In this document: positions 30,712-64,000 of the stretch, piece by piece
Position numbering within the stretch: position 1 is the stretch's first letter
Layout: every line of letters begins with the position of its first letter
Assembly: GCA_011389985.1 (NCBI GenBank)
Contig: JAABTH010000004.1
Span: 65,846-129,845, forward strand
Direction of reading: 5' to 3'
Length of the DNA: 64,000 nucleotides
Source of the DNA: Bacillota bacterium
GTDB taxonomy: Bacteria > Bacillota > Dethiobacteria > DTU022
Notes under the pieces: model-generated
The model's input: only the letters and a program-made list of their open reading frames with translations
Databases searched by the model: none
Told to the model about the DNA's origin: nothing
Made by a program: the position numbers and the translations under genes

Positions 30712-31710
30712 TTATAGTATTTTCCCCCAATGTTTCATTATCTCTCTGAACGAAGTGCCGCACTGCGGGCAGTCACCCTGGTAATGAAGAATAAAACTGC
30801 ATTTGCTGCATTTAATTGCCGGTATCCTTTTTCTTTCATTAGCCATTTTTTCAGCTACCATTGTTATTGTCGGTTTCAGATCGTTGCCTGCTTCTCCTGC
30901 ATGCTTGTCTTCCGTTCTGTCGTTAAGCTTCTCTGGTGGCTTCTGCTGCGTTTTATCCGGCTTGTTAATACCATAGGTATAGTCGCTTTTGCAATTCATA
31001 GGAAGCCTTCCTGCTGTAATGATGTTTTTATCATCCGGAAATTTATTGAAGTTAATTTGTTTCTGACTTTCATCAGCTGCGGGCATACCACTTCTTGTTA
31101 CAGTTTCTCTGGTAATATCAGGAATATCTTTGCTGTCAAACAGCAGCCTGGTATATATCTGTGTAGCCGAGGCTTCCCTGTGTCCGAGTGCATCCTGCAG
31201 TAGTTTTATATCCCTGGTTTCGCGGATAAAATCAACTGCAAATGTATATCTAAGCAGGTGCGGATAAACATCTTTTAATATACCAGCTTTACGGGAGAGC
31301 CGTTTGATCATTTCACGAATGTACCTATCCTTTAACTTGCATCCGTCAAGTGTGGTAAAAAAAACTGTTGAGCCCCTGGGTTTAATCTCGCGCCAGCTTT
31401 TAAGAAGCATCAATTCAGCCTGATCAAGCCATAGCTTCCGGCTTAGCGCCGCCCCGCTTTCTCTTATAAAGATTTTACTTTCATCCCAGTCAATATCATT
31501 TACCTGCAGGTTGATGATTTCGCCGACCCGCATTCCCGTTTTCAACATGAGGCTGATTATACAAAGATTCCTCAGCCCTGTCGGTGCCCTTGGATTGGGC
31601 TGTTTGAGAAGAGCCAACTGTTCATAACTGTTTAGTGGTTCAGGGTTTCTTTTTGATATTGACATCCGAATCACCTTATATAATACCATATTAATAGTAT
31701 GCGGTATCAA
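30712..31710 (-). mobile_element. atypical short tyrosine recombinase (XerC/D-phage integrase catalytic domain only) with a C-terminal zinc-ribbon extension
   Basis: 332 aa; box I (LRNLCIISLMLKTGMRVGEI), box II (HLLRYTFAV), catalytic Tyr (ATQIYTRL); almost no N-terminal core-binding domain; C-terminal CSKCS...CPQCG. Confidence 0.7.
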
Positions 31711-46328: not shown

Positions 46329-47141
46329 TTAACCCAGGCGAAGTTCTTCTGAACGCCTGGTCGCTTCTCTTACAGCTTTAATCAGGCAGCTGCGAAAACC
46401 CGATTCTTCAAGAACAAGTAGGGCAGAACTGGTTGTTCCTGCCGGAGATGTAACTATATTTCGAAGTTCAGCCGGATGTTGGGCATTGGTTTCCAGCATG
46501 CGTGCAGCACCGATAACATTTTGAACTACCATTTTTGCGGCCACATCACGTCTGATACCGACGGAGACTCCTGCATCGATCATTGTTTCAATAAAGAGAT
46601 AAACATAAGCTGGTCCGGTTCCGCTTAGGCCTGTGGCTGCATCCATCAGTTTTTCCGGAAGCCTCATAGTGAGACCGATTGATTTAAGCAGATGCTCTAC
46701 TTCACGTCTTTCTTCATCGGTAACGGCATCGCCAGTGCTTAGCGCTATTGTTCCTTCGCCAATCAGGCAGGGGGTGTTCGGCATTAAACGTATAACTTTA
46801 GTACCGGATGAAAGGCAGCTTTCAATGAAACTAATAGTAATTCCCGCAGCTATTGAAATATAAACCTGGTCAGGTTGAACAAATGGTTTTATTGCATATA
46901 ACAAACCCTCCGTATCCTGAGGTTTGACCGCAATAAATATGTGTTTACAAAGAGGAATAAAGTCTGCTGGTTTATCAGCTGTGTTTGCGTTTAATTCTTC
47001 TGCAAGTTGAATCATTCTTCCTTTATCGAGATCATACAGGTAAAGCAGCGATGGTTCTATGCATCCGGCTTTAATCATTCCTTTAGCCAGGGCAGAGCCC
47101 ATGGCACCACAACCAATAATTCCAATGACATCATTATCCAT
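46329..47141 (-). CDS. proC: pyrroline-5-carboxylate reductase
   Basis: 270 aa; N-terminal Rossmann GIIGCGAMG; P5CR C-terminal dimerisation domain. Confidence 0.85.
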   Translation of the reverse strand: MDNDVIGIIGCGAMGSALAKGMIKAGCIEPSLLYLYDLDKGRMIQLAEELNANTADKPADFIPLCKHIFIAVKPQDTEGLLYAIKPFVQPDQVYISIAAGITISFIESCLSSGTKVIRLMPNTPCLIGEGTIALSTGDAVTDEERREVEHLLKSIGLTMRLPEKLMDAATGLSGTGPAYVYLFIETMIDAGVSVGIRRDVAAKMVVQNVIGAARMLETNAQHPAELRNIVTSPAGTTSSALLVLEESGFRSCLIKAVREATRRSEELRLG

Positions 47142-47279: not shown

Positions 47280-48452
47280 CTATTTGAGAGCTTCCGTGTC
47301 CGATTTATAGATATTGCGATCGCAGCGGAAACAAGCCTGGGCTTCGTCAGAGATGCAGGGGCTGCTGCTGGTAATCATAGAAGCAATATTATTTCCGATA
47401 CCCGGCCCCAGCATCAGGCCCTGGCCACACATACCAACTGCCAGAATAAGGCCTTTAAGCCCACTGGCATAATCAACAATCGGTACGCCATCAGGTGTCA
47501 TCGGGTAGCAGCCTCTCCAAATCCTTCGAATCAAGAGGTTCTTAAATTTTGGGATCAGTGCGGTCATTCTGCTCGATAAAACCGGTAGGAATTCAGATAA
47601 AGATTCCCGGTTTGTCCCGACAAATAGATCTTTTGGCGTATAACAGAATATAATTTGCCCTTTTCTGTTTTGGCCAAAGTAAAAGTTTGTAGTTTTTCCT
47701 TCAGGACCAGGACGCAGATCAACTATCAGTGGGGCTAGAAAATGCTTTATTGGCGCAGAGATTCCGGCCTCGTGAGAATCGGGAGTGACCGGTATGTCAA
47801 TGCCAAGCATGGGTCCATGTTCAGCTGCATCTGAACCGGCGGCAAGGACAACCCAGTTTGAAGAGTAAATATCTTTATCAGTTCTAACGCCGGTAATTTT
47901 ATCGCCTTCCCGCAGGTAACCGATCACTCTTTCATTAAAACGGTAAACGGCGCCGCAGTTTTCAGCCTCCCGTTGAAATGCGATTGGAGCCAGAATAGAT
48001 GAAACCTGACCATCATCAGGAGAATAGGTGCCTCCTCTTAAGCCATCAGGGTTAATTCCCGGGATAATTTCTTTGATGTCATCCGGACCGACCCAGTTAA
48101 TATTTAGTCCATATCCCTTTTGGACAGGCAACAGGCTTTTCAGTGTGGTTTCAACTATTTCATCGTAAACAGGAAAACAATACCCGCCTGGTTTCCATTC
48201 AATGTCAAAGCCGTAGATATCTTTCCAGGTGGAAAAAATTCTGATGCTTTCAAGACCGATGCTAATCTTACCGGGATCTGAGTGAGTAGCCCTTACCCCG
48301 CCTATAGCTGTTTTATTTTCACCCTGACCTGCTGCAGTACGCTTATCTAATACAAGCACTTTTAAACCTGCTTTTGCCAGGTGATAAGCGGTCGGGTTAC
48401 CCACGCTTCCACAGCCGACAACTATAACATCGTAAATATTACCTGTCGGCAT
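47280..48452 (-). CDS. FAD-dependent amine dehydrogenase of the DAO family (HcnC / sarcosine oxidase beta / D-Hyp-proline dehydrogenase beta-like)
   Basis: 390 aa; N-terminal GxGxxG (VVGCGSVGNPTA); DAO-family length and C-terminal HG(Q)G-like motif; its start overlaps the stop of the upstream 1294-aa gene. Confidence 0.75.
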   Translation of the reverse strand: MPTGNIYDVIVVGCGSVGNPTAYHLAKAGLKVLVLDKRTAAGQGENKTAIGGVRATHSDPGKISIGLESIRIFSTWKDIYGFDIEWKPGGYCFPVYDEIVETTLKSLLPVQKGYGLNINWVGPDDIKEIIPGINPDGLRGGTYSPDDGQVSSILAPIAFQREAENCGAVYRFNERVIGYLREGDKITGVRTDKDIYSSNWVVLAAGSDAAEHGPMLGIDIPVTPDSHEAGISAPIKHFLAPLIVDLRPGPEGKTTNFYFGQNRKGQIIFCYTPKDLFVGTNRESLSEFLPVLSSRMTALIPKFKNLLIRRIWRGCYPMTPDGVPIVDYASGLKGLILAVGMCGQGLMLGPGIGNNIASMITSSSPCISDEAQACFRCDRNIYKSDTEALK

Positions 48453-51400
48453 TACTCAATTCCTCCTGTATCATTGGCGATAAAATCTCCAAGGTGAACT
48501 TCAGCGACAAGCGGCCGGTGAGTCGGCATGGTCAGCTCAGATAAAGGAATACCTTCTTCTCTGTATATACGTAAAATTAAATCGGTACATGTTTTTCCGT
48601 TGCAGCCGCCCAGGCCGGTTCTTAGAAGCGCTTTCAACTGGTTTAGATCACGTACTCCATCCCGGATTGCCCTGACTATTTCACTTTTCCTGACTCGTTC
48701 GCAGCGGCAAACAATTGGATCGGCCTCTTCTGTAAGCGAGCCTTCAAGCGGCTGTCCCGGATCTATTTCCCTTATGTGGAATCCTGCTACCTTCAGTCTT
48801 TGATCGTAGGGAACTTCGAGCATGAGCAGGCGCCTGCTGTTTTGCTCTTTATGGTCTTTATAGGCGATAACCCTTCCCCTGCCTACAATATTGCCCTCCA
48901 TGTCTGTTGTGGTTACTTCCTGCCCGATTGGGATCAGGTTATTGATAAATTCAAAAGGCATCATTAGAAGTGCTTTCTCTTTTTTAGGATCGTAATCATC
49001 AAGGACAAGATTTATAGCCAAACCCGGACAGGCGAGCACACATCGGCCGCAACCAATGCATTCACCACTAAATTCCGGGAGCGATAATATGGAATCATTC
49101 ATGCTGATGCAATTCTTTGGACATGCTTCTGTGCAGGGGTTACAGGGGATTTCCTGCATGCAGCGAATTAATGGGTAAACATTATCTTCCCTATCTTCCG
49201 GAATAAAGGGGTCACTGCTAGCGGCATGCTGCTTTAGGGTTTCACCAAATTCTTCCCAGTCGCTGGGGACAGGAAGGTCAATACCCATCGACTGAGCGAT
49301 TTTGCGGCCTGTTATTTTTCCGGAAAAAATGGCAGCAGATGCTTCAGCAATCTCATTGGCGTCTCCGGCTGCGTATGCTTCTATTCCGTACTCTTTCGCT
49401 TTTTCCAAAAGTTCGTTAACCGGGCTTAAACCGACGGCAATTAAAACAGTATCAACTTCAAAAGATCTCTCGGTACCGGGAATAGTTTTAAAATTCTCAT
49501 CCAGGGCAGCGGTAATTACCCGTTCAACTTTCTCTTCTCCCTCAATCCGCAGGACTGTATGTGATGTCCAGACAGGCACCCCAAAGCGCCTGATCTTGTC
49601 CTCATGAACCTTGTAACCGCCACAGCGCGGCAGTGCTTCAACAAGTCCAACTACATCGATTCCGGCTTGCAGGGCATGATAAGCTCCGATTAAACCTACA
49701 TTACCTCCACCAACGATAAAGAGTTTTTCAGCACAACGGATTAGATCGCGGTTAACAAGGGTCTGAAAGGCTCCGGCGCCGTAAACTCCCGGCAAATCAG
49801 CACCGGGCAAGGCCAGGCTTTTTTCTCTTGCTCCGGTTGCAAATAAAACTTTATTTGCATTAACCAGGCGGTAGATACCGTTTGAGGAAACGCCAATTTT
49901 TCCGTCACTGAATACACCGATAACGCTTGAATTGAGCCAGGTATTAACAGTGGGTAGTTTTTGAAGGTCTCCGACCAGAATTTCGCCTATATGCATACCG
50001 CGGGAACCGGCGTAACAGTCAGAGACTGAACCAAAAAAATTATGGGTCTGCAGACTCAGTTTACCACCAAGCGATTGTTTGTCGTCTATTAACAAGGTAT
50101 CGACGCCCACGTTGCCGAGCTCTATTGCAGCACTTATTCCAGCAGGTCCTCCTCCTATAATTAGTACCTCTGCATTATATACAGGTGTTTCCGGAATGAC
50201 AGTTTCACTTGGCGGTATGTCCAAAAGTTCAGGCAGTCCTTCTACACTTTTTACAACCATTCCCTCTGTTACAGGGGTCATACAGCCTTTTACCGGTTTT
50301 CCGTCAGCAATAACCATGCATTGAGAGCACTGGCCGTTAACACAGTAAATGCCCTGAGCGGCGCCGTCATTTTCATGATGGCCGAAAATATGAATACCTG
50401 CAGCATATAAAGCAGATGTGATCACTTCATTTGTGCGTGCTTTTAATTCAAAATTATTGAAAGTAAAACTAATATCAGCCTTCTCCACGGGAGGTAAGAT
50501 GGGGTGATTGTTAATCCGGTAGAGATCCGGCATTTTTATAGTTTCAGCTTCAGTAATAGCTAAGTTTTCCCGATTGAACAATAGAGGTTTTGGTGATCTT
50601 GTTTTTTGCCAGGCTCCTTTGCGCATTAAAAGAGTATATTGAAGATATTCATTTACCGAAGCACAAGTTTTGGGTTGGCTCTCTTTTAACAGTTCTTCAA
50701 CCATTTTTGTGCGGCTCTGTTGATCAAGTGCAAAATGAAAATTTTCATCACCCGGCTGAGTACGACCGGCGAGCTTATTAATAGTTATTATTTCTCGGCC
50801 TGATTTTAAATCATTAATTTCTGCCAAACTGCTAACCGGGCGGACCGTAAGATTCTTCTCTTTAATTATTTTAAGGGCCGATTTAACTACAGAAACTACA
50901 GCAGATTCACCGGTAAGCATTTTGAAGAGCAGGTGAAGTTCTGGTAGATTGCCGAGGTATAGGAGATCGGTAATTTCAGCATTTTCAGTTTTAAAAAGTG
51001 AGGCCAGATCAGCCGGAAGCGCCGGTTTTGTCTCTGGTTGCATTTTAAACCAGTTAATAATATCAAGCGCCCGATCCATGCCGCTCTTATTTCCATTATC
51101 AGGGTCATAAACTGCTGATAAAACTGCCAAGTCACTTTGTTGTTTATATTCAGTCCAGGTATTATGAGGGCCTTCAGGACCTGGTTTGGGTGTCAACAGG
51201 GCTGTTATATTATGATTCAAGCCTAAATAGTCAAGCACACCCTGAACAGTTTTAACACGCTCTTCCCCGAGATCACCACCTTCTTTATAGGGGCAAGTCT
51301 GTCTGTCTCTGCACATCAGGCCTATCTTCCTTGCTCCCCGGGCCAGGCAGTAAAGAATTGTCGCAATATCAACACTGCCGATGCAGCTGACTCTGATCAG

Positions 51401-52336
51401 TTCGCTGTTACCAGCCGGAAAAGGAGAGCGTGAACAGGCAAATATTATATCTTTGTCCTGAAGGTTTTTATCAAGCAGAGTGTTTTTAAGATCAGATAGA
51501 TCTTCTGTTAATTCCTGGCTTATAGCCCCTGTGGGACATGCCCCGGCGCAAATACCGCAGCCCAGGCAGGCAGTTGGAGAGATAAATGCTATCGCTTCAG
51601 AGCCGAGTTGAATTGATGTTCTTGGTACTGAAAAGGGGCAGACTTCCTCGCATATCCCGCATCCGCGGCAAAGATCGCTGTTGACTTCACAAACAGGTAT
51701 TTGAAACTCTCGATTCCAGATAGTGAGTGTCTGGTTTTTCTGTTCCATGGGAATAGCCCCCGTGGGACAGATATAAGCACAGGCACGGCAGCCGGTACAC
51801 TCATCACCTACTCCATCAGGGTTTGGTGCTACAAGCTTATCAATCCCTCGCCCCAGGGTTGAAATAGCTCCAGGCCCGCAATCCTGGCATACCCTGATGC
51901 ATAAACCGCACAACACGCATTTATTATCTGGTTTTCCAACAATGTAAGAAGTTGTATCAATACCCTCTAAGCGGGCCATTGATTTGATTTCATCTGAGCC
52001 GGGGCACTGGGCCATGTACAGCTCCAGCAGCGCCTGTCGTGTTTTAAGGACATCTTCTGTTCTTGTATTTACAATTAGTCCGTCTTCAGCAGGATAGAGG
52101 CAGGATGTTACAATTTTTGAAGATTTATTCCAACTTTCTTTGGTGATCTCAACTACACAAAGACGGCAGGCGCCGGATGGTGCGAGTGCAGGATGATGGC
52201 ATAATGTTGGTATGTTGAGCCCAATATCCTCTAATATACCGAGCAGCATCTTTTTATTTTCGGTTTCTACCTTGCGTCCGTCAACTGTGATTATTATTTT
52301 CTTGCTCATCAATTTATGTTCACCTGTTTCTTTCAA
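48452..52336 (-). CDS. 1294-aa multi-domain Fe-S flavoprotein: NuoG/HydA-N-terminal-like [2Fe-2S] + 2x 2[4Fe-4S] + MvhD-like + HcnA/SoxA-type [2Fe-2S] + FAD/NAD(P) pyridine-nucleotide-disulfide oxidoreductase (HcnB/SoxA/HdrA-like) + ferredoxin + BFD-like [2Fe-2S]
   Basis: motifs in order: ITVDGRKVE..CHHP..GACRLCVVEI; four CxxCxxCxxxCP; IRVSCIGSVD..CRDRQTCPY; GIYCVNGQCSQCMV; IIGGGPAGISAA and IVGGGNVGLIGA; CIGCGRCVLACP; CRCERV..GGCNGKTC. Confidence 0.8.
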   Translation of the reverse strand: MKETGEHKLMSKKIIITVDGRKVETENKKMLLGILEDIGLNIPTLCHHPALAPSGACRLCVVEITKESWNKSSKIVTSCLYPAEDGLIVNTRTEDVLKTRQALLELYMAQCPGSDEIKSMARLEGIDTTSYIVGKPDNKCVLCGLCIRVCQDCGPGAISTLGRGIDKLVAPNPDGVGDECTGCRACAYICPTGAIPMEQKNQTLTIWNREFQIPVCEVNSDLCRGCGICEEVCPFSVPRTSIQLGSEAIAFISPTACLGCGICAGACPTGAISQELTEDLSDLKNTLLDKNLQDKDIIFACSRSPFPAGNSELIRVSCIGSVDIATILYCLARGARKIGLMCRDRQTCPYKEGGDLGEERVKTVQGVLDYLGLNHNITALLTPKPGPEGPHNTWTEYKQQSDLAVLSAVYDPDNGNKSGMDRALDIINWFKMQPETKPALPADLASLFKTENAEITDLLYLGNLPELHLLFKMLTGESAVVSVVKSALKIIKEKNLTVRPVSSLAEINDLKSGREIITINKLAGRTQPGDENFHFALDQQSRTKMVEELLKESQPKTCASVNEYLQYTLLMRKGAWQKTRSPKPLLFNRENLAITEAETIKMPDLYRINNHPILPPVEKADISFTFNNFELKARTNEVITSALYAAGIHIFGHHENDGAAQGIYCVNGQCSQCMVIADGKPVKGCMTPVTEGMVVKSVEGLPELLDIPPSETVIPETPVYNAEVLIIGGGPAGISAAIELGNVGVDTLLIDDKQSLGGKLSLQTHNFFGSVSDCYAGSRGMHIGEILVGDLQKLPTVNTWLNSSVIGVFSDGKIGVSSNGIYRLVNANKVLFATGAREKSLALPGADLPGVYGAGAFQTLVNRDLIRCAEKLFIVGGGNVGLIGAYHALQAGIDVVGLVEALPRCGGYKVHEDKIRRFGVPVWTSHTVLRIEGEEKVERVITAALDENFKTIPGTERSFEVDTVLIAVGLSPVNELLEKAKEYGIEAYAAGDANEIAEASAAIFSGKITGRKIAQSMGIDLPVPSDWEEFGETLKQHAASSDPFIPEDREDNVYPLIRCMQEIPCNPCTEACPKNCISMNDSILSLPEFSGECIGCGRCVLACPGLAINLVLDDYDPKKEKALLMMPFEFINNLIPIGQEVTTTDMEGNIVGRGRVIAYKDHKEQNSRRLLMLEVPYDQRLKVAGFHIREIDPGQPLEGSLTEEADPIVCRCERVRKSEIVRAIRDGVRDLNQLKALLRTGLGGCNGKTCTDLILRIYREEGIPLSELTMPTHRPLVAEVHLGDFIANDTGGIE

Positions 52337-54741
52337 CTTTCAACTTCGATAGCATCAAAATTGCAGGTTACGCGGCAGAGACCACAGCGGTTACAGAGAT
52401 CCTGGTTAATAATGTGCAGCTCTTTCTTATTACCGCTGATTGCCTTTTGCGGGCATAACCTGGCGCATCGTCGACAGCCGGTACAGCTAGCGGTGATTTT
52501 GAAGCTAATTAATTCTCTGCACACTCCGGCAGGGCATCTTTTATCATCAATATGGGCCATATATTCATTTTTAAAGTGTTTCAAAGTACTCCGCACTGGA
52601 TTGGAAGCAGATTTACCCAGGCCGCATAAAGAGCCCTGTTCAAGAAGGTCAAGAAGCTTCTCTATTCTCTCAATATCGCCGGGTACTCCTTTGCCCCGGC
52701 ATATTTTATCAAGTATATCATGAAGATTTGCCAGTCCGAGTCTGCAGGCAGCACATTTTCCACATGATTCCTGGGCAAGAAAATCTGTAAAATAACGTGC
52801 TACGTCAACCATGCAGGTATCTTCATCCATAACAATCATACCGCCGGAGCCCATCATCGAGCCTTCTAACGTGAGCGTATCAAAATCGACCGGTAGATCG
52901 AGTTTGCTCTCAGGCAAACAGCCTCCGGAAGGGCCACCGGTCTGAACTGCCTTAAAGGGTTTATTGTTCAATATACCACCGCATATATCATAGATAATTT
53001 TGCGCATGGTTATGCCCATCGGCACTTCAACCAGTCCGGTATTTTTGACCTTGCCCACTACAGAGAATACTTTAGTACCCGGACTGGTCACGGTTCCGGT
53101 GTTTGCATACCAGGCTGCTCCTTTATTTATGATAACCGGTATATTGGTAAAAGTTTCAACGTTGTTTAAAACGGTCGGTTTATTATAAAGGCCCCTTACT
53201 GCCGATCTGATATATTTTGCCCGTGGCTCTCCTACTCTGCCTTCAATCGATTGCATCAGCGCAGTAGATTCACCACAGACAAAAGCACCAGTACCCCGGT
53301 TGATTGTAACATCAAATGAAAAGTCTGTGCCGCAAATATTATTCCCCAGAATGCTGGCTTGTCTGCATTGATCAATCGCTGCCTGCAGGTGTTTTAATGC
53401 ACGGGGATATTCTTCGCGGACATAAATATAACCTTCTGATGCCCCAACTGCAAAAGCGCAGATGATCATTCCTTCCAATACCGAATACGGATCACCTTCC
53501 ATGATGCTGCGATCCATAAAAGCACCGGGATCTCCTTCGTCACCATTGCAAATGACATAGCGAATATCTGAATCAACTGAGGCGCTTGTACGCCATTTTT
53601 TCCCGGTCGGAAAGCCTCCTCCTCCCCTTCCTCGCAATCCTGACTTTTCAATTTCACGAATCACCTGGTCAGGTTGCATTGTATAAAGGGTTTTTATGAG
53701 GGCTTTAAAACCATCTTGTGCAAGATAGTCTTTGATATTAAGAGGATCGATAGCACCCACATTGCGCAGTGCGATACGCTGTTGTCCGGCAAAAAATGGT
53801 ATCTCCTCGTACTTTTCCACACTTTCAGCAGTTTCTGGATCATGGTACAGAAGTCTTTCTACGGCCTTGTTACCGATTATCGTTTCATCGATTATTTCCC
53901 TGGCATCTTCAGGATGGACATTATTATAAAAGATGTTCTGTGGTGAAATAATTACCAGGGGGCCTTTTTCACAGAAACCCTGGCAACCTACTCGTTTCAG
54001 ACCGATATTAACCGGTACCGGCAGCTCAGAAGAAGTTAGTTCCCGGCTGATCGCTTCGGCAACCTTAAGGCTGCCCTTGGCAAGGCAACCGGTTCCCGCA
54101 CAGACCAGGATCTTTTGTTTATCTGCTTTTTTTTCACTGGTTATTTGATTACTTAGTTTCTCAAATTGACTGGAGGATGAGATTCTTTCAACAAGAATCG
54201 GAGTAGTTTCTTTTAATGTTTCAGGTTCTGCCTGTTTTGTTTCTGAAGAGCGACACTTCTTAAGTTCTTTGGCCAGTTGAGAAGAAGTAACGCTGCCATG
54301 GTACACTCCATCAATTACTACTACAGGAGCCATAGCGCATGCACCAACACAGTGCACAGAATTAAGCGTCAATTCACCATCTTCTGTAGTGTCACCCGGT
54401 TTAATCCCAAGCTGATCCGATACCTGACTCATTAAAACTGAAGCGCCCCTGATGTGGCAGGCGGTGCCTTCACAAATGTCTATTTTGTGCTTACCGCTTG
54501 GTTTTAAAGAAAATGACTTATAAAAAGTTGCAACTGAATATACCTGTGATTTTGGAACCTTGAGAATTTCAGACACTCTGGAAACAGCTTCTGTCGGTAG
54601 GTATCCGAACTCAGCCTGGATATCCTGTAAAATCATTATTAATCCGGAGGCTTCGCTATTGTGGCGTTCAATAATAGAATCGAGCAGATTAGATTGGTTG
54701 CTCATTACCAGTCCTTCGTTTGATTTAGTTTTTATGACCAT
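52333..54741 (-). CDS. fused NuoE-like + thioredoxin-like FeS + NuoF (FMN/NADH) + 2[4Fe-4S] ferredoxin protein (HydB/HndC-type NAD(H)-binding bifurcation-module subunit)
   Basis: 802 aa; CEGTACH..CVGACAMAP; CAGTGC..CQGFCEKGP; GRGGGGFPTGKKW; ESCGKCAACR; CTGCRRCARLCP and CNRCGLCRVTC; 4-nt overlap with the downstream 1294-aa gene; the real start may be Met13 (near 54705), which has a better SD. Confidence 0.8.
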   Translation of the reverse strand: MVIKTKSNEGLVMSNQSNLLDSIIERHNSEASGLIMILQDIQAEFGYLPTEAVSRVSEILKVPKSQVYSVATFYKSFSLKPSGKHKIDICEGTACHIRGASVLMSQVSDQLGIKPGDTTEDGELTLNSVHCVGACAMAPVVVIDGVYHGSVTSSQLAKELKKCRSSETKQAEPETLKETTPILVERISSSSQFEKLSNQITSEKKADKQKILVCAGTGCLAKGSLKVAEAISRELTSSELPVPVNIGLKRVGCQGFCEKGPLVIISPQNIFYNNVHPEDAREIIDETIIGNKAVERLLYHDPETAESVEKYEEIPFFAGQQRIALRNVGAIDPLNIKDYLAQDGFKALIKTLYTMQPDQVIREIEKSGLRGRGGGGFPTGKKWRTSASVDSDIRYVICNGDEGDPGAFMDRSIMEGDPYSVLEGMIICAFAVGASEGYIYVREEYPRALKHLQAAIDQCRQASILGNNICGTDFSFDVTINRGTGAFVCGESTALMQSIEGRVGEPRAKYIRSAVRGLYNKPTVLNNVETFTNIPVIINKGAAWYANTGTVTSPGTKVFSVVGKVKNTGLVEVPMGITMRKIIYDICGGILNNKPFKAVQTGGPSGGCLPESKLDLPVDFDTLTLEGSMMGSGGMIVMDEDTCMVDVARYFTDFLAQESCGKCAACRLGLANLHDILDKICRGKGVPGDIERIEKLLDLLEQGSLCGLGKSASNPVRSTLKHFKNEYMAHIDDKRCPAGVCRELISFKITASCTGCRRCARLCPQKAISGNKKELHIINQDLCNRCGLCRVTCNFDAIEVES

Positions 54742-55265: not shown

Positions 55266-56462
55266 TTAAGACTGAGCAAATACCTGGGAGACAATATCTA
55301 TTGCCCAGTCGAGCTCATTTTTCGTTATTACAAGTGGGGGCGCGAACCTTATGACGTTATCATGTGTTTCTTTAGCCAGAATTCCCTTATCCATTAGTTT
55401 TTCACAATAAGGTCGGGCTTTTTCTTTTAATTCCATACCCACCATTAAACCCTTGCCCCTGATTTCTAAGATTACAGGATTATCAATATTCTTAAGTTTT
55501 TCCATAAAGTATCTACCAAGCTCATCTGATTTTTCAACCAGTTTTTCTTCCTCAAGAACATCGAGCGCGGTAAGTGAAACTGCACAGGCAAGTGGATTTC
55601 CGCCAAATGTAGATCCATGCGAACCGGGCTCGAATACTCCAAGAATTTCTTCTGAAGCTGTTACTGCTGAGATAGGATATACTCCGCCGCCAAGCGCTTT
55701 GCCAAGAATATAGACATCAGGTTTAACATTTTCCCAATCGCAGGCAAACATTTTTCCGGTACGTCCGAACCCGGTTTGAATTTCATCTGCCATAAAGATG
55801 ACATTGTTTTCTTTGCAAAGTTTGTAAGCTTCATTTAAGAAACCTTCGGGCGGGATAATAATTCCTCCTTCACCCTGCACAGGTTCGATTAAGAGGGCAG
55901 CGGTGTTTTCATTAATAGCCTCTCTAAGGGCATCTATGCTGCCGTACTCTATTATTTTGAATCCTGGTGTGTAGGGGCCAAAACCTGCTTTATAGGCTTC
56001 ATCGGAGCTGAATGAAATAATAGTAACAGTTCTACCGTGAAAGTTACCTTTGCAGGCAATAATTTCTGCCTTATTTTCAGGTATATTTTTAACTTTGTAT
56101 GCCCAGCGGCGTACAGCTTTAATTGCGGTTTCAACTGCCTCTGCTCCGGTATTCATCGGCAGAACCATCTCTTTGCCTGTTAATTCTGCCAGGCGGTGGC
56201 AGAATTCACCAAGCTGATCGTTATGAAAAGCCCTGGATGTAAGAGTTATTTTATCTGCCTGCGCTTTTAATGCGTCAATTATTTTTGGATGACAGTGTCC
56301 GAAATTCATTGCTGAATAAGCGCTAAGCATATCCATGTAACGTTTTCCTTCAGGATCGGTTACCCAGACACCCTCTCCTTTGGCCAGGACAACTGGCAGT
56401 GGAAGGTAGTTCCTTGCTCCATACTTTTCATTCAGCTTCATAACCTCTTTTGTGGTTTGCAT
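55266..56462 (-). CDS. rocD: ornithine--oxo-acid aminotransferase (class III PLP aminotransferase); the ORF track extends to a TTG at 56480
   Basis: about 398 aa; class-III aminotransferase motifs; ATG at 56462 has SD AAAGAGGTG at 7-nt spacing. Confidence 0.8.
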
Positions 56463-56647
56463 ACATAACACCTCTTTCAATGATGATTAACCTGTTTTAT
56501 AATTGATCCGGTAAGGCCTGGACATAAAAATATCCCGTGTTTATAGCGGGATACGCGTTTTATTCTCAGCGTAATCTGTAATTTCCAGCGGGTCATCACT
56601 TTCGAGTTCATTCATAAGTGCCTTTGCCGGCATTAGATAAACTCCTT

Positions 56648-56844: not shown

Positions 56845-59226
56845 TTAAACCAAATCGTGAGCGGTACGTGCTATAATCTCATTTTGAAGCTGTTCGCTAA
56901 GGTTATTAAAATAGTCACTGTAACCGGCTACCCTGACAATTAAACTGCGAAATTGTTCTGGGTTTGCCTGAGCTTTTTTCAAAGTATCTGCATCAATAAC
57001 ATTAAACTGTAGATGATGACCGTCCATTCTGAAATAAGATCTGACAAGATGGACCAGATTATCCAGACCTTTTTCACCGGTGAGTACTTTCGGCGAAAAT
57101 TTAAGATTAAGTAAAGTTCCCCCCGTTGCCAGGTGATCCATTTTAGCAGCTGATTTAATCACAGCAGTCGGTCCGTTAAGGTCGTTGCCCTGAACAGGTG
57201 AAATGCCTTCAGACAGTGGCATTCCGGACAAGCGGCCATCAGGAGTAGCCCTGATTACTGAACCAAAGTATACATGAGATGTAGTGGGCAGCATGTTGAT
57301 TCTGTATGTGGCGCCACGTATACTCTTGCGTCCATCAACTAAACGGTGAAAGATTTGGAAGACATTTTGCATGATAATGTCCGCATAGTCTTCATCATTG
57401 CCGTAATGGGGAGTTTTATTAACGATGTACTGGCGCATGGCTTCTTGTCCTGAAAAGTTATTAGCTAATGCAGAAAGTAGTTCATCCCAACTGTATTTCT
57501 GCTCATCATAAATATGTTTTTTAATCGATGTTAAAGAGTCAGTAATTGACCCTATGCCTACACCCTGGATATAGTTTGTATTGTAGCGTGATCCACCGGA
57601 ATTGTAATCTTTAGCTTTATCAATGCAGTCATCGATAATTAGTGACAGAAAAGGTGCCGGCATAGAATCTGCATAAAGTTTTTCAATCAGCTGGTTACCG
57701 GCAATTTTGATCTCCAAAAAATGTTGAAGCTGAGTTTCAAAAGCATCCATCAGCTGATCAAAACTTTCAAAGTTACCCGGATCACCAGTGTCCGGCCCAA
57801 GTTTTTTACCGGTTAATGGATCACGGCCGCGGTTCATCGTTATTTCCAAAACTTTGGTCAGGTTGAAATAGCCGGTCAGGATGTAACTTTCTTTTCCGAA
57901 AGCGCCGGTTTCAACACAACCACTTATGCCGCCATTTCGCGCATCAACCAGTGACTTGCCCTGGACCAGTAATTCCTGAATTACCGCTTCTACATTAAAT
58001 ACAGAAGGTTGTCCCCAGCCTTTGCGGATTATTTCCCCTGCTTTCCTGATAAAAAGGTCCGGGCTTTTTTTACTAACCTGTATATTTGTGCTTGGCTGAA
58101 GAAGTCGCATTTCATCAATAACTTCCAACAGAAGATAGGTGAGTTCGTTAACCCCGCTATTGCCATCAGGTTTTAGCCCGCCCAGGTTAATATTTGAAAA
58201 ATCTGTATAAGTACCACTTTCCTTTAAAGTTATTCCCACTTTTGGAGGAGCAGGTTGATTATTAAATTTGATCCAGAAGCATTCAAGCAACTCTTTTGCT
58301 TTATCTTTGCATAAAGAGTTATTATTTATACCTTTGCTGTAGAACGGCCAGATATGCTGGTCAAGCCTTCCGGGGCAGAAAGCGTCCCAGGTATTTAATT
58401 CAGTTATAACCCCGAGGTGGATAAACCAGTAGTGTTGAAGAGCTTCCCACATATCACGGGGTGCATTTGCCGGAACATTATCACAAACAAAGGCAATTTT
58501 AAGCAGCTCTTCTCTTCTTCCTGTCGATTTTTCAGATTCGGCCAGCTCTCTTGCTCTGTCAGCATGCCTTTTTGCATAAGTTATTATTGAATCAGCACAT
58601 ATCGCCATCGCTTGCAGCTGTTCACTTTTAGCCAGTGCTTCTTGATCTTCTATAAAATCAATTGAATCGAGTTTGCGGGCGATTTGCTTTTTTAAATCAA
58701 GCATGCCCATATTATAGATTTTATCACCCGCTACCGTATGTCCCGGAGCACGCTGTTCCATGAATTCTGTGAAAATACCGGCTTCGTAACAGTTATGCCA
58801 ATCACTACTCATTTTACTGAAGATAATGTCCCGCATTGAACGGCCCTTCCAGTATGGGATAATCTCATTTTCCTGAGTATTCCTTACATCATCGCTTACA
58901 TCAAATGAAATCTTCTCACGTTCTGAGATTACCGAAAGATCATCGATTGTATGACAACAAAGTTCCGGATAGGTAGGAGTAGCCTGCGGTCCGGTTCCAC
59001 GTTCGCCGACAATTAATTCACCATGGTTAATGCATATAGTTTTGTTTTCCATTAGGTGTTTGAAAGTCAGAGCTCTCAGTAAAGGCATACTCACCTTGTT
59101 TGCATATTTTTTATATACTTCTGTAACTAAAAGAGCTCTTTCAATGGTGATTGAAGGCACAGTTGATTCGCTTTGGATTCGCAGATTTTGCACTCTTTCA
59201 TTTGTACCCCGTTTGATGTTATTCAT
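56845..59226 (-). CDS. glycyl radical enzyme (PFL-fold; candidate hydroxyproline dehydratase-type GRE)
   Basis: 793 aa; Cys loop GGISGCVETG; glycyl radical motif RVAGYSDYFNNLS near the C-terminus. Confidence 0.85.
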   Translation of the reverse strand: MNNIKRGTNERVQNLRIQSESTVPSITIERALLVTEVYKKYANKVSMPLLRALTFKHLMENKTICINHGELIVGERGTGPQATPTYPELCCHTIDDLSVISEREKISFDVSDDVRNTQENEIIPYWKGRSMRDIIFSKMSSDWHNCYEAGIFTEFMEQRAPGHTVAGDKIYNMGMLDLKKQIARKLDSIDFIEDQEALAKSEQLQAMAICADSIITYAKRHADRARELAESEKSTGRREELLKIAFVCDNVPANAPRDMWEALQHYWFIHLGVITELNTWDAFCPGRLDQHIWPFYSKGINNNSLCKDKAKELLECFWIKFNNQPAPPKVGITLKESGTYTDFSNINLGGLKPDGNSGVNELTYLLLEVIDEMRLLQPSTNIQVSKKSPDLFIRKAGEIIRKGWGQPSVFNVEAVIQELLVQGKSLVDARNGGISGCVETGAFGKESYILTGYFNLTKVLEITMNRGRDPLTGKKLGPDTGDPGNFESFDQLMDAFETQLQHFLEIKIAGNQLIEKLYADSMPAPFLSLIIDDCIDKAKDYNSGGSRYNTNYIQGVGIGSITDSLTSIKKHIYDEQKYSWDELLSALANNFSGQEAMRQYIVNKTPHYGNDEDYADIIMQNVFQIFHRLVDGRKSIRGATYRINMLPTTSHVYFGSVIRATPDGRLSGMPLSEGISPVQGNDLNGPTAVIKSAAKMDHLATGGTLLNLKFSPKVLTGEKGLDNLVHLVRSYFRMDGHHLQFNVIDADTLKKAQANPEQFRSLIVRVAGYSDYFNNLSEQLQNEIIARTAHDLV

Positions 59227-60139
59227 TTTTCTGTTCTACCTCGCTGATTATATTAATTCCTCTTTCTGCAAGAAAAGTTCTGATATGTTCAAGGGCTTCA
59301 GGACCGGGAATATTGATGCCGCTCATTTTGTAATCAAGATCCAGGTTTATATATTTTGCTGAACCAAGTTTATGGTAAGGGATAAGCTCCAAAGAGTTAA
59401 TTCCTTCTCGTTTCAACACTGCTGCGACCTGATTCAGGCTGGCCGCGTCGTCGTTAACAGTGGGGATGACAGGCATTCTTACCAAAATTTCAGCTTCATT
59501 TGCAATTAGGTTATGTAAGTTTTCTAAGATTGGCTTCATATCGACCCCAAGGTACTTTTTAGATTTTCTTGCATCAGCAATTTTTAGATCATAAATATAA
59601 AGATCTGTATATGGCATAGTATCCCTTAAACCGGACCAGTTAGCAAACCCCGAAGTTTCAATGGCGGTATGGATTCCCTCGTGCTTTAAAGTCTCTAAAG
59701 TTTCAATTAGAAAATCAGGTTGCATCAGCGGTTCCCCGCCTGAAAAAGTTGCCCCGCCTCCCGATTCTTCAAAAACAATTCTATCTTTTATTATTTCATT
59801 AACTAGCTCCACTACATTAATTTCCCGGCCTGCTTCTTCGAGCGTTTCTGTCGGACAATTCGCAGCACATAACATACAAAGGCTGCAACGCTTACGATCT
59901 ATGAAAGGACCGTTATCTGTTAATTGAACTGCCTTTTCCGGGCAATGCTCAACGCAAAATCGGCATGATATACAACGATCAGGGTGTTTAAAAAGCACTT
60001 TATCCCGTTTGATGCCTTCCGGGTTTTGGCACCAGGGGCAGCTTAACGGGCAGCCTTTAAAAAAAACAGTTGTTCTAATACCTGGTCCGTCATGCAGAGA
60101 AAACCGTTGGATGTTAAAAATTATGCCTTTATTCATCAT
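59219..60139 (-). CDS. glycyl-radical enzyme activating enzyme (radical SAM, with ferredoxin-like insert)
   Basis: 306 aa; CPLSCPWCQNPE radical-SAM cluster plus two extra Cys clusters; overlaps the downstream GRE by 8 nt. Confidence 0.85.
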   Translation of the reverse strand: MMNKGIIFNIQRFSLHDGPGIRTTVFFKGCPLSCPWCQNPEGIKRDKVLFKHPDRCISCRFCVEHCPEKAVQLTDNGPFIDRKRCSLCMLCAANCPTETLEEAGREINVVELVNEIIKDRIVFEESGGGATFSGGEPLMQPDFLIETLETLKHEGIHTAIETSGFANWSGLRDTMPYTDLYIYDLKIADARKSKKYLGVDMKPILENLHNLIANEAEILVRMPVIPTVNDDAASLNQVAAVLKREGINSLELIPYHKLGSAKYINLDLDYKMSGINIPGPEALEHIRTFLAERGINIISEVEQKNE

Positions 60140-60266: not shown

Positions 60267-62684
60267 ATGCCTCAAATAAAACAAGAAAAAGCAGGGTTAA
60301 ATATTGATCCTGCTTACATGAAGCGGGTAACCTTTCTTAAACGCAGGGTGCTTAATACCCGGCCGGAAATGGATCTGGAAAACGCCAGGCTGCTGACAAG
60401 AGGTTTTCGGGAAGCTGAAGGTGAACCACTTGTAGTTCGTAAAGCCAAAGCTTTTCGGAAACAGTGTTATGAAAAAACAGTTAAGATCTGGGATGAAGAA
60501 CTGATTGTCGGCTGTTCAGGCAGTAAAATCAGGGCAGGTATTCTCTGCGCCGATTCCTGCTGGTCAGTTCTTGACGAAGAACTCGACACGATTAGCAGCA
60601 GAAGATATGATCCCTTTAATCTCAAGCCTGAAGACAGGCTTGCTTTTGAAGAGGAAATTCGTCCTTATTGGAAAGGACGTTCAAATTACGAGGAATGGTT
60701 GGCCCAGATTCCCGATGATACAAGGACTCTTCGCGACAATGGAGTGGTATACATTGATCGAAAGGCAGTGCGTGGCTGGGGTGAAACAACGGCCGGCTAT
60801 GAATGGCTGATAAACGAAGGCCTGGACGGAATAATAAAAACTATTGAAGATCGAAAATCAAGGCTTGATATAACAAATTCGGGAGATTACGAGAAAGACT
60901 ATTATCTCAAATCGCTTTTGATAATAGCTGACGGTATGACCAGGCTTGCCGAAAGATATGCAGAAGAAGCTGAACAGATGGCATCCCGCGAAGGTGACGA
61001 ACGGCGCAAAGGTGAACTGCTGGAAATTGCAAAAACTTGCCGTCGCGTCCCCGTAAAGCCGGCCCGCACTTTCCGCGAAGCCTTGCAGTCGCTATATTTT
61101 TACCAAACAATGATATTCATGGAGCAGAATGCTGCCAGTTATAACCCCGGCAGAATGGATCAGTATCTCTGGCCATTTTATAGGAAGGATCTTGAAGCCG
61201 GGCACATTACATCTGAACAAGCGCAGGAACTGCTCGATTGCCTCTGGGTCAAATTCAGCGAACCCTGTCTTTTCCAGGATGCTCAGACAGCAGAATTTGC
61301 AGCCGGTTATCCTATGTTTCAAAATGTATGTGTAGGAGGTGTTGACGATACCGGTAAAAATGCTGTTAATGATCTGTCCTACATGATTCTTCAGGCGACC
61401 ATGGATGTCCGATTATACCAACCTTCACTTTCGGTACGTTATAGTGTTTCGAAAAACCCTAATTCTTTTTTGCGTAAGGTAGTGGAGCTGATCAGGTTGG
61501 GAACAGGATTTCCCGCTTTTCACAACGACGATATCGGCACTACAATGCTTATGAACAAAGGCGTGCCACTGAAGGAGGCATACAACTGGAATCCCTGTGG
61601 TTGTGTTGAGACAAATCTGGAAGGTCGGATGCGTCAGTACACCGCCCTGGCTGATATTAACCTTGGCAGTATGGTTGAATTCGCCCTGCTTAACGGGATG
61701 AACAGAAAAAGCGGCTTAACCATATCTGTAAAAACCGGGGAGCCAACGGAATTCGATTCCTATGATCAGTTCCTGGATGCTGTTAAAAAACATTTAGCAT
61801 ATGCAACAAGAGCTGTCGTAGCCGGAAGTCACATTATCGATGAGATCGGTTTGAACAGACCTGTTCCTGCTCTTTCTCTTACTTTCAAAGAATGTATAGA
61901 TAATGCAAAAGATTATGCCTGGGGTGGCGCTAAATATAACGTAGGTAATGGTATTATTCTGATTGGAGTAGCCGACTTGATCAATAGTATTGCAGCTGTT
62001 AAATATCTTGTATTTGATACCGGAAAAATCACAATGAAGAAGCTTATAGAAGCTCTTGATCAAGATTTTAAAGGTTTCGAAGATATTCGTAAGCTTTGTC
62101 TTGAGGCTCCCAAATACGGTAATGATGATCCTTATGCCGATGAAATTGCAGGAGAGGTATTTACTTATATTGCAGATGAAATTGAACGTTATAAAAGCAA
62201 ATATGGAACTATGACACCCGGCATTCTACCTGTTTCAGGAAATACACCTTTCGGCCTCGAAGTAGGAGCTCTGCCGTCGGGACGAAAAGCCTGGCAGCCA
62301 CTGGCTGATGGAGTTAGTCCCAGTGGAGGAACTGATTTAAACGGACCAAGTGCAGTAATAAAATCAGTTGCCCATATTCCACATGGCCGGTTTGTTCAGG
62401 GCACCCTGCTCAACATGAAGATTGAACCCGCTATGCTCAATTCGGAAAACGGTATAACCCAGCTTATGGCGCTGTTAAAAAGTTTATGCAGTCTTGGTAT
62501 CTTCCATGTCCAGTTCAATGTCATAGACCAGGAAACTCTGATCAAGGCACAACAGGATCCTGATAATTATAAAGGATTGCTTGTAAGGGTGGCCGGCTAT
62601 ACAGCCTATTTTGTTGAGCTTGGTAAAGATGTTCAGGATGAAATCATCGGACGCACGGTCCAGCACGGTATTTCGCTGGGATGA
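60267..62684 (+). CDS. glycyl radical enzyme, second paralogue (substrate unknown)
   Basis: 805 aa; Cys loop NPCGCVETN; glycyl radical motif RVAGYTAYFVELG. Confidence 0.85.
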   Translation: MPQIKQEKAGLNIDPAYMKRVTFLKRRVLNTRPEMDLENARLLTRGFREAEGEPLVVRKAKAFRKQCYEKTVKIWDEELIVGCSGSKIRAGILCADSCWSVLDEELDTISSRRYDPFNLKPEDRLAFEEEIRPYWKGRSNYEEWLAQIPDDTRTLRDNGVVYIDRKAVRGWGETTAGYEWLINEGLDGIIKTIEDRKSRLDITNSGDYEKDYYLKSLLIIADGMTRLAERYAEEAEQMASREGDERRKGELLEIAKTCRRVPVKPARTFREALQSLYFYQTMIFMEQNAASYNPGRMDQYLWPFYRKDLEAGHITSEQAQELLDCLWVKFSEPCLFQDAQTAEFAAGYPMFQNVCVGGVDDTGKNAVNDLSYMILQATMDVRLYQPSLSVRYSVSKNPNSFLRKVVELIRLGTGFPAFHNDDIGTTMLMNKGVPLKEAYNWNPCGCVETNLEGRMRQYTALADINLGSMVEFALLNGMNRKSGLTISVKTGEPTEFDSYDQFLDAVKKHLAYATRAVVAGSHIIDEIGLNRPVPALSLTFKECIDNAKDYAWGGAKYNVGNGIILIGVADLINSIAAVKYLVFDTGKITMKKLIEALDQDFKGFEDIRKLCLEAPKYGNDDPYADEIAGEVFTYIADEIERYKSKYGTMTPGILPVSGNTPFGLEVGALPSGRKAWQPLADGVSPSGGTDLNGPSAVIKSVAHIPHGRFVQGTLLNMKIEPAMLNSENGITQLMALLKSLCSLGIFHVQFNVIDQETLIKAQQDPDNYKGLLVRVAGYTAYFVELGKDVQDEIIGRTVQHGISLG

Positions 62685-63643
62685 AAGATAAAGATATTGT
62701 GAAGAAAAATAAGGTAAAAGGCAATATTATCAGGATCGAAAGATCTTCCATACATGACGGACAGGGCTTAAGAACAGTAATATTTTTAAAAGGCTGTAAG
62801 CTAAGCTGTCCCTGGTGTTCTACGCCTGAATCGCAATCTTTTGAATTTGAGAAAGGCTACGATCAGAGACTATGTACAGTCTGCGGCCAGTGCGTTGAGT
62901 CCTGCCCTGAAAATGCTATCTCTTTTTTTAATGATGGTCTGAGCGTTAGTACTGACAAAGATAAATGTGTAAGATGTTTTCGATGTTTTGAGGTGTGCCA
63001 GGCTAATGCAGTTAAAAAGTACGGATTCACTGTTTCTGTTGATGACTTAATGAAGGAGATTAGTAAGGATGAAATATTCTACTTCCACTCTGAAGGCGGG
63101 ATAACAATTAGCGGAGGAGAACCGCTCTGCCAGCCTGTTTTCTGCGCCGCACTTCTAGAAGAATGCAAAAAAGTTGGTATTCACACAGCTATGGAAAGCA
63201 GTCTTCATACCTCTTACAGCAGCTTTAATAAAGTACTGCCCTGGATCGATCATCTCTATGCCGACCTTAAACATATGGATAACCAGATGCATGCTCTATG
63301 GGTGGGGGAAAGCAATCATCTTATTCTCGAAAATCTGCTGAGAGCAGATCAAACTGATTATTCTTATCGATTAACAATTCGCCTTCCTCTTATTCCAGGT
63401 TTTAACGATACAGATCTCAATCTTCAAGCTACAATAGATTTTTGCCGGAAACTGAAAAAAATAAAAGAAATAGAACTGTTACCTTATCATCGATTAGGTA
63501 GTGATACTTATCGCCTGCTTGGATTAGATTACAAATGTCGCGAACTTATGCCACCTTCAATAGATCACCTTGACGAGCGGGTGGCTTATATGAACAGCCT
63601 TTCATCCGGTATTCCTATAAAAACAGGTAGCGGAATTACCTGA
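62681..63643 (+). CDS. glycyl-radical enzyme activating enzyme (radical SAM)
   Basis: 320 aa; CKLSCPWCSTPE plus two ferredoxin-like Cys clusters; 4-nt overlap with GRE2. Confidence 0.85.
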   Translation: MKDKDIVKKNKVKGNIIRIERSSIHDGQGLRTVIFLKGCKLSCPWCSTPESQSFEFEKGYDQRLCTVCGQCVESCPENAISFFNDGLSVSTDKDKCVRCFRCFEVCQANAVKKYGFTVSVDDLMKEISKDEIFYFHSEGGITISGGEPLCQPVFCAALLEECKKVGIHTAMESSLHTSYSSFNKVLPWIDHLYADLKHMDNQMHALWVGESNHLILENLLRADQTDYSYRLTIRLPLIPGFNDTDLNLQATIDFCRKLKKIKEIELLPYHRLGSDTYRLLGLDYKCRELMPPSIDHLDERVAYMNSLSSGIPIKTGSGIT

Positions 63644-64000
63644 GAATAAAGCCGTGTCTTAAAGGATCATCCGGATCTATAATTAGCTTATTGATTCCGC
63701 ATATGTGAGCAGAGCCTGTTACTTTTGGTATAACTGCATCATAAGGGCCAAAAGTGGTTTTTTCTACTGCCTCACCCGTAAAACAGCTGCCCAGGATACT
63801 TTCCACCACAAAAGGTTCGTTAATTGCAAGATCACCTTTACTAATGTGGATTGCCGCTCTGGCACTCACTCCAGTACCTGTAGGGCTTCGATCTACTTCG
63901 CCGTCAGCAAAAACACAGACATTCCTGCTGTGATTTCCCGGTTGCTCGGCCTTTCCGATAAATATAATTCCATAGAGAAAACCGAGGTCGTCTTCAAAGG
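63636..64000 (-). CDS. proline racemase superfamily enzyme, C-terminal ~120 aa only (5' end beyond the window); Cys->Thr at the second catalytic position suggests a trans-3-hydroxy-L-proline dehydratase-type enzyme
   Basis: minus-strand translation ...NHSRNVCVFADGEVDRSPTGTGVSARAAIHISKGDL...KVTGSAHICGINKLIIDP...; matches the family motif DRSPCGTGTSA with T in place of C; converges on and overlaps AE2 by 8 nt. Confidence 0.6.
   Translation of the reverse strand, partial: FEDDLGFLYGIIFIGKAEQPGNHSRNVCVFADGEVDRSPTGTGVSARAAIHISKGDLAINEPFVVESILGSCFTGEAVEKTTFGPYDAVIPKVTGSAHICGINKLIIDPDDPLRHGFILR

Follow-up and report, generated by a model that had tools for sequence, protein, structure and literature searches.

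Which reaction is catalyzed by a proline-racemase-superfamily protein that carries Thr in place of its second catalytic Cys? The question is raised by a gene that runs off the end of a 64,000-nt stretch of DNA from a Dethiobacteria genome (Bacillota; contig JAABTH010000004.1), which we refer to as the window. An earlier reading made from the sequence alone (the sequence-only reading) had proposed that this Thr marks a hydroxyproline dehydratase and not a racemase or epimerase. Our comparative analyses support the proposal by the catalytic dyad (Cys96/Thr260), by class-specific residues and by a distance tree. Taken together with the published dyad scheme, Cys96 and Thr260 point to a type I (Cys/Thr) trans-3-hydroxy-L-proline (T3LHyp) dehydratase as the probable product of the gene, and we put the probability of this reading at roughly 0.8.

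The window fragment and the full-length gene

Direct translation of the minus-strand frame 63636..63998 gave 120 codons with zero stops, open up to the window edge. The C-terminus reads ...DPLRHGFILR and is followed by the stop TAA at 63636-63638. The two features concerned are as follows:

63636..64000, minus strand: 3′ end of the proline-racemase-superfamily gene, C-terminal 120 codons plus TAA; the gene runs off the window
63870..63893, minus strand: DRSPTGTG motif, with the Thr260 codon ACA (63879-63881) as the second catalytic position

The translation of the fragment (63636-63998, minus strand) is FEDDLGFLYGIIFIGKAEQPGNHSRNVCVFADGEVDRSPTGTGVSARAAIHISKGDLAINEPFVVESILGSCFTGEAVEKTTFGPYDAVIPKVTGSAHICGINKLIIDPDDPLRHGFILR, followed by the stop. 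It matched Pfam family PF05544 (Pro_racemase) with E=2e-36 and 126.1 bits, at profile positions 210-324 of 325 and against a gathering cut-off of 27 bits; the fragment alone matched PDB entry 6R76, the T3LHyp dehydratase of Thermococcus litoralis, with E=1.4e-43. The ORF (open reading frame) of a convergent glycyl-radical-enzyme activase, called activase 2 here, ends at 63643 and so overlaps the fragment by 8 nt (63636-63643), and a convergent overlap of 8-14 nt is kept in syntenic relatives. The sequence-only reading had described most of this correctly: the Pfam match bears out a proline-racemase-family gene at 63636-64000, the hand translation of the minus strand is the same as the computed one, the frame is open to the window end, SPTGTG has its Thr in place of Cys, and the 8-nt overlap with activase 2 is confirmed. 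It had also stated that the ORF list holds only the last 77 aa (63636..63869), starting from an internal Met. The length stands; the start does not, and the list shows 77 aa because it begins at an internal GTG, the codon of Val264.

The remainder of the gene was found on a near-identical contig, L001 (Logan contig SRR29699978_140308, 9050 nt), obtained by an exact-sequence look-up of the neighboring activase protein. L001 shows 6 mismatches to the last 7250 window bases (99.9% identity), the sole one inside the fragment being synonymous, and extends ~1.8 kb past the last base of the window. On this contig the gene is an ORF of 340 codons without interruption. Its last 120 residues equal the window fragment exactly, and its initial ATG overlaps the stop of the upstream gene by 4 nt. 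An NCBI assembly contains the identical full-length protein (P0001) on a contig of 150,298 nt, and the database record that matches the 805-aa glycyl radical enzyme of the window exactly gives a contig of that same length. By homology with L001, the full gene in the genome of the window would comprise 340 codons and reach to about 64658. The sequence-only reading had named an in-frame stop or a frameshift just upstream as the observation that would speak against it. None is found, since the ORF of the 99.9% identical L001 and the recorded P0001 are both intact. All 80 invariant family columns are kept in the full-length protein.

Catalytic dyad and family placement

The first catalytic position is Cys96 (NEGYSSMC96GHG), seen on L001 and in P0001 beyond the window itself, and the second is Thr260 (DRSPT260GTG), seen in the window. 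Both superfamily motifs are thus present, M95-C96-G97-H98 on L001 and D256-R257-S258-P259-T260-G261-T262-G263 in the window. In an alignment with solved relatives, Thr260 falls on the Thr of 6R76 and of human L3HYPDH (C14orf149; 7QPO), and on the Cys of three proline racemases, from Acetoanaerobium sticklandii (7PB3), Trypanosoma cruzi (1W61) and T. litoralis (ProR, 6J7C). The alignment, which includes the T. cruzi racemase and the human enzyme named for this comparison by the sequence-only reading, therefore puts the Thr inside the catalytic motif, at its second position. According to published work, a Cys-Cys dyad denotes ProR or HypE and a Cys-Thr dyad T3LHyp dehydratase (PMC4364671, PMC4141209, PMC4113996), while Ser-Thr denotes a convergent second type of dehydratase (PMC4364671, PMC4113996). 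Thr is not the sole signature of a dehydratase, as type II (Ser/Thr) enzymes also exist, and in one superfamily cluster some members are promiscuous, with both 4-hydroxyproline epimerase and trans-3-hydroxyproline dehydratase activity (PMC4113996). The type II enzyme of Agrobacterium vitis (B9K4G4; 4K7G) has Thr at the second position and performs the same reaction (PMC4113996). Unlike the protein studied here, it has Ser at the first position and other residues in the ligand site. A type II dehydratase was excluded, as the protein has Cys96 at the first position and is only 26% identical to 4K7G. A Cys/Cys proline racemase or 4-hydroxyproline 2-epimerase was likewise rejected, the second position being Thr260.

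Neither Cys96 nor Thr260 varies in the 120 database homologues closest to the protein (63-100% identity). Of 150 sequences that represent clusters at 50% identity, 77 have a Cys/Cys and 41 a Cys/Thr dyad, the rest being scattered; the top 17 are all Cys/Thr. Further residues follow the same division. Y68, H88-N89-E90, S93 and Y229 are common to 6R76 and 7QPO and are replaced in all three proline racemases, and Y180, also common to both dehydratases, is replaced in two of the three. The ligand residues reported for the T. litoralis enzyme are Met103, Tyr188 and Thr270, and for the human enzyme Cys104/Thr273 are named (PMC9309405). With a gapless offset of +8, M95, C96, Y180, T260 and T262 correspond to Met103, Cys104, Tyr188, Thr268 and Thr270 of the T. 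litoralis enzyme, so that Thr262 is the counterpart of its ligand-binding Thr270.

Eleven other proteins (P0141, P0146, P0152, P0153, P0164, P0167, P0168, P0192, P0202, P0241 and P0250) have the full type I signature (Y68, HNE, S93, Y180, Y229) yet carry Cys at the second position. They may be regarded as candidate 3-hydroxyproline epimerases or bifunctional enzymes.

The full-length protein scored 358.8 bits against PF05544. Its best solved relative is the T. litoralis enzyme (6R76/6R77; E=3.9e-133, gapless over 339 residues, 56% identity), followed by human L3HYPDH and then by the three proline racemases. The AlphaFold model of the full protein had a predicted local distance difference test (pLDDT) value of 91.2 and a predicted template modeling (pTM) score of 0.90. 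In a Foldseek search of this model against the PDB, 6R76 ranked first with a template modeling (TM) score of 0.95, and the top 38 matches were all superfamily members, in agreement with the two-domain alpha/beta fold of solved structures from this family. In a neighbor-joining distance tree of 132 diverse superfamily sequences, calculated without bootstrap support, the protein and 6R76 share one 3-leaf clade. To take in the human enzyme as well, a clade of at least 31 leaves is needed; 27 of these are Cys/Thr, and the racemases are placed elsewhere in the tree. The top NCBIfam model was that of T3LHyp dehydratase, NF045511 (378.7 bits; residues 11-340 against profile positions 6-335). This score lies under the equivalog cut-off of the model, hence the generic public label "proline racemase family protein", which our results narrow to a specific, testable function. 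The gene itself is a further member of a known enzyme class and as such will not surprise a specialist.

The activity of the T. litoralis enzyme as a T3LHyp dehydratase has been measured (Km 0.288 mM, kcat 1710 per min; PMC4141209). The protein described here shares with it the Cys/Thr dyad, the Met/Tyr/Thr ligand triad, the class-specific residues and the predicted fold. It differs in its bacterial host; its closest relatives are found in metagenome-assembled genomes of Syntrophomonadaceae and Dethiobacteria (in a scan of GTDB representative genomes, from which the species itself was absent, the best match was 72% identical). It differs also in adjoining two glycyl radical hydroxyproline dehydratases and in the subclade substitutions L57T and T231I/V. 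With human L3HYPDH (43-44% identity, phmmer 308 bits) it has in common the dyad and the motifs HNEGYSSMCGH, GGAFYAF, FLYG and DRSPTG. The human enzyme has a Cys104-Cys137 redox switch (PMC9309405); as the counterpart of human Cys137 is Thr126, a switch of this type is not expected here. At position 262 the human enzyme has Ser, in contrast to Thr in our protein. The proline racemases (37-42% identity) share the fold, MCGH and DRSPxGTG, but have Cys at the second position, F68, M-D-G/T at 88-90 and L93, as well as F180 in two of the three.

Gene neighborhood and candidate Pyr2C reductase

The dehydratase gene lies next to a group of genes related to proline and hydroxyproline. In the window these are:

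62681..63643, plus strand: glycyl-radical-enzyme activase (activase 2); TIGR02494, 312 bits vs. a cut-off of 174
60267..62684, plus strand: glycyl radical enzyme of 805 aa, HpyG-like; PFL2-3 subfamily model
59219..60139, minus strand: activase of the neighboring HypD; family/profile scan
56845..59226, minus strand: trans-4-hydroxy-L-proline dehydratase HypD, a glycyl radical enzyme; NF043068, 1347 bits vs. a cut-off of 1100
55266..56480, minus strand: ornithine--oxo-acid aminotransferase (OAT), interconverting pyrroline-5-carboxylate (P5C)/glutamate semialdehyde and ornithine; kept beside HypD in relatives
52333-54741, minus strand: NuoE-NuoF fusion; Pfam/NCBIfam scan
48452-52336, minus strand: 1294-aa Fe-S/flavoprotein with Fer2_4, several 4Fe-4S domains, FlpD, Pyr_redox_2 and BFD
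47280-48452, minus strand: DAO-family flavoprotein; Pfam/NCBIfam scan
46329..47141, minus strand: pyrroline-5-carboxylate reductase ProC; TIGR00112, 272.6 bits vs. a cut-off of 196.75

HypD and its activase are transcribed divergently from the pair formed by activase 2 and the 805-aa enzyme. The latter enzyme stayed under every NCBIfam equivalog cut-off and passed the PFL2-3 subfamily model alone; its Cys loop (NPCGCVE) and glycyl motif (RVAGY) are both retained. ProC is known to reduce the HypD product to proline (PMC7077986). The trio at 47280..54741 looks like a heteromeric dehydrogenase for proline (or an N-methyl amino acid) that is attached to a module of the electron-bifurcation type; two of its members, the NuoE-NuoF fusion and the large Fe-S protein, are also found next to HypD/OAT in relatives L004, L006 and L007. 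Outside this island, the window ORFs scanned with Pfam and NCBIfam (part of the remaining ones) are housekeeping genes. Amid these lies a phage-integrase-family gene (30712-31710, minus strand), ~13 kb before the proline/hydroxyproline island begins.

Relatives of the locus were surveyed by exact-protein look-ups and by scans of GTDB genomes and metagenomes. Results showed that the gene order is kept in 7 of the 10 loci whose homologue has 67% identity or more, as well as in additional metagenome contigs such as L093. It consists of a Liv-type ABC transporter, a ~400-aa membrane protein, the Cys/Thr gene, the convergent activase and HpyG-like gene, the divergent activase and HypD, and OAT. More distant lineages (Calditrichaceae, Rhodothermaceae, Bacteroidetes, a deltaproteobacterium and Eubacteriales) include at least 5 loci in which a homologue with 58-61% identity is no more than a few kb away from a HypD gene. 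The arrangement places a putative cofactor-independent 3-hydroxyproline dehydratase in physical linkage with the radical 4-hydroxyproline dehydratase HypD and an HpyG homologue in uncultured anaerobes, and this linkage suggests that hydroxyproline isomers of collagen and plant origin are used in a coordinated way under anaerobic conditions. In the searchable literature, whose coverage does not extend to the primary HpyG/HpzG paper (ACS Catal 2024), no linkage of HypD or other glycyl radical hydroxyproline dehydratases with a trans-3-hydroxyproline enzyme was found. The locus also brings partner genes to attention, namely an orphan membrane protein, an Fe-S dehydratase paired with an OCD-family gene and the large flavoprotein complex.

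The orphan is the ~400-aa membrane protein, encoded directly upstream of the dehydratase gene (L001 7905-9050, minus strand; ~0.66-1.8 kb past the window end). It had no Pfam or NCBIfam match. By eye, it has a signal peptide and a thioredoxin-like N-domain with CP(V/I)C and GFPT; its membrane motifs, DGFNPCS and ELPCTAGFP, are reminiscent of CcdA/DsbD. Its gene separates the ABC transporter from the dehydratase gene in L004, L006, L007, L010, L012, L089, L090 and L093, and in L105 it stands beside a superfamily paralogue that is more distant (36% identical) and lies on the opposite strand.

Further genes accompany the locus in some relatives. A 341-aa protein without Pfam match is encoded between HypD and OAT in L007 (18024-19049), in L008 and probably in L010 and L012; its gene is absent from the window, in which the HypD-OAT gap is only 365 nt. 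A second proline-racemase-family paralogue (36-40% identical) occurs 1-3 kb from the Cys/Thr gene in L009 (12950-13924), L011 (3635-4600) and L060 (6516-7493), and T. litoralis likewise pairs its dehydratase with a ProR-like gene.

A dehydratase of the proposed type would require a reductase for its product, delta1-pyrroline-2-carboxylate (Pyr2C), and OCD/mu-crystallin is a family of Pyr2C reductases (PMC4113996, PMC4141209). In T. litoralis, the gene cluster contains an OCD-type Pyr2C reductase together with heteromeric proline-dehydrogenase flavoproteins (PMC4364671). We took a census of the 124 ORFs directly flanking 80 GTDB homologues. OCD/mu-crystallin was the commonest neighbor family (17 of 124), followed by APH_6_hur (6), Peptidase_M24 (5) and AMP_N (5), the last two being Xaa-Pro peptidase domains. 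The same neighborhood reasoning served to assign the function of trans-3-hydroxyproline dehydratase in PMC4113996. An OCD gene is immediately adjacent in 17 more distant loci, and HypD, a dehydratase homologue and OCD are found in one cluster in unrelated lineages (L062, L080, L038). The APH_6_hur (aminoglycoside/hydroxyurea kinase-like) matches of the census are a separate matter. In six Chloroflexota loci (L014, L016, L017, L018, L020, L021) a ~300-aa conserved protein, forming one cluster, is encoded directly downstream of the Cys/Thr gene, and these six proteins are probably the six matches.

For the subclade to which our protein belongs, an OCD gene at the head of the co-directional array was predicted from synteny and was found in relatives (L089, L091, L093, L096, L013, L015). 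The array runs in the order OCD, Fe-S serine-dehydratase-like (SDH-like) gene, optional Fer4-AFOR-ThiS, ABC transporter, orphan membrane gene and dehydratase homologue. The orphan membrane gene is seen in L089 and L093, whose contigs reach that far, and the dehydratase homologue in L089, L093, L013 and L015. The position of OCD in these relatives is equivalent to ~11-12 kb beyond the window end, and by this synteny an OCD gene would be expected to head the array in the genome of the window as well. The predicted order past position 64000 is the orphan membrane gene, five ABC transporter genes, perhaps Fer4-AFOR-ThiS, the SDH-like gene and, within ~13 kb, OCD. Its role as the Pyr2C reductase is uncertain, since the OCD of the array is always paired with the SDH-like gene and has ~30% identity to most OCDs directly beside dehydratase homologues.

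The pair is widespread in its own right. In L015 (2277-4860), L089 (8263-10819) and many of L091-L168, the gene right after OCD encodes a 528-aa Fe-S protein that resembles L-serine dehydratase (SDH_beta and SDH_alpha). The pair, or its reverse order, is widely kept, including in human-gut contigs L129, L130 and L132, and in some loci (L092, L098-L102) the pair, or the SDH-like gene alone, directly adjoins HypD and its activase. The two genes might constitute another dehydratase/imine-reductase module; no literature on the pair was found.

Proposed reaction and competing explanations

By analogy with the characterized enzymes, Cys96 would take the alpha-proton from T3LHyp. As Thr260 stands in for the second acid/base Cys, the carbanion would not be reprotonated from the opposite face; instead the 3-hydroxyl would be eliminated, giving delta2-pyrroline-2-carboxylate and then Pyr2C. 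A reductase would turn Pyr2C into L-proline, while HypD (via P5C and ProC) and the HpyG homologue would supply parallel branches. In this way several hydroxyproline isomers could be channeled into P5C and proline without oxygen.

Several points weigh against a T3LHyp dehydratase. The NF045511 score does not reach the equivalog cut-off of 540 bits, and the NCBIfam proline racemase model gave an almost equal score (347.1 bits). A tblastn search of the 64-kb window with 17 OCD proteins found no OCD-family gene, and the scanned part of the window ORFs yielded no Ldh_2 (MLD2) domain. The OCD of the array, SDH-paired and ~11-12 kb off, may serve the SDH-like enzyme instead. Two substitutions, L57T and T231V/I, are private to the glycyl-radical-linked subclade, the second of them neighboring a known ligand site, and the close, conserved association with an HpyG-like gene would be compatible with another substrate.

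The last two of these points bear on the alternative that survives best, in which the same Cys/Thr chemistry acts on a different 3-hydroxy imino acid. Its substrate would be N-methyl-trans-3-hydroxy-L-proline or 3-hydroxypipecolate, imported by the upstream ABC transporter and handled with an HpyG-type N-methyl-hydroxyproline pathway. Proteins of glycyl-radical-linked loci are separated from those of OCD-adjacent loci by positions 57 and 231 alone, neither of them catalytic. The former have Thr57 and Val/Ile231, the latter, like both characterized dehydratases, Leu57 and Thr231. Position 231 (window 63966-63968) adjoins ligand "site 4" (PMC4364671), two residues past Tyr229. Besides these substitutions, the conserved convergence of the gene on those of the HpyG-like enzyme and its activase (in the 7 of 10 loci and in L093) and the lack of an OCD gene directly adjacent within the subclade speak in favor of such a substrate. 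On the other hand, every mappable catalytic or ligand-contact residue named in the cited papers is the T. litoralis residue. H98, D256 and T262, which bind the ring nitrogen and the carboxylate, are unchanged, so that there is no sign of room for an N-methyl group, and the relatives at 58-61% identity adjoin classical OCD genes. In the light of these data we consider a different substrate quite improbable.

Recruitment of the Cys/Thr enzyme to another substrate, such as N-methylated 3-hydroxyproline, is also one half of a broader and similarly speculative proposal. Its other half is that the whole array represents an "all-isomer" island for strictly anaerobic hydroxyproline catabolism, of a kind not described before. 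Such an island may comprise OCD, the Fe-S serine-dehydratase-like gene, the ABC transporter, the orphan thiol-motif membrane protein, the Cys/Thr dehydratase, the HpyG-like enzyme, HypD, OAT, the putative bifurcating-type proline dehydrogenase and ProC. That one or the other holds is unlikely in our estimate.

A racemase or epimerase despite the Thr, be it a proline racemase, a 4-hydroxyproline 2-epimerase or a 3-hydroxyproline epimerase, is suggested by the closeness of the two NCBIfam scores and by the public names of homologues ("proline racemase", "proline racemase family protein"). These names are generic, and two-base 1,1-proton transfer requires Cys at both positions (PMC4113996, PMC4364671), whereas position 260 is Thr. 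The racemase residues F68, M-D-G/T at 88-90, L93 and F180 are all replaced, and the tree sets the protein apart from the racemases. Together this makes a racemase or epimerase very unlikely, and a T3LHyp dehydratase remains the preferred assignment. Finally, a decaying or truncated remnant at the contig edge, as the 120 codons visible in the window and the 77 aa of the ORF finder could suggest, is scarcely conceivable: a pseudogene is ruled out by the intact 340-codon ORF, with its ATG overlapping the upstream stop, and by the 80 of 80 invariant columns, and the same gene is intact in many relatives.

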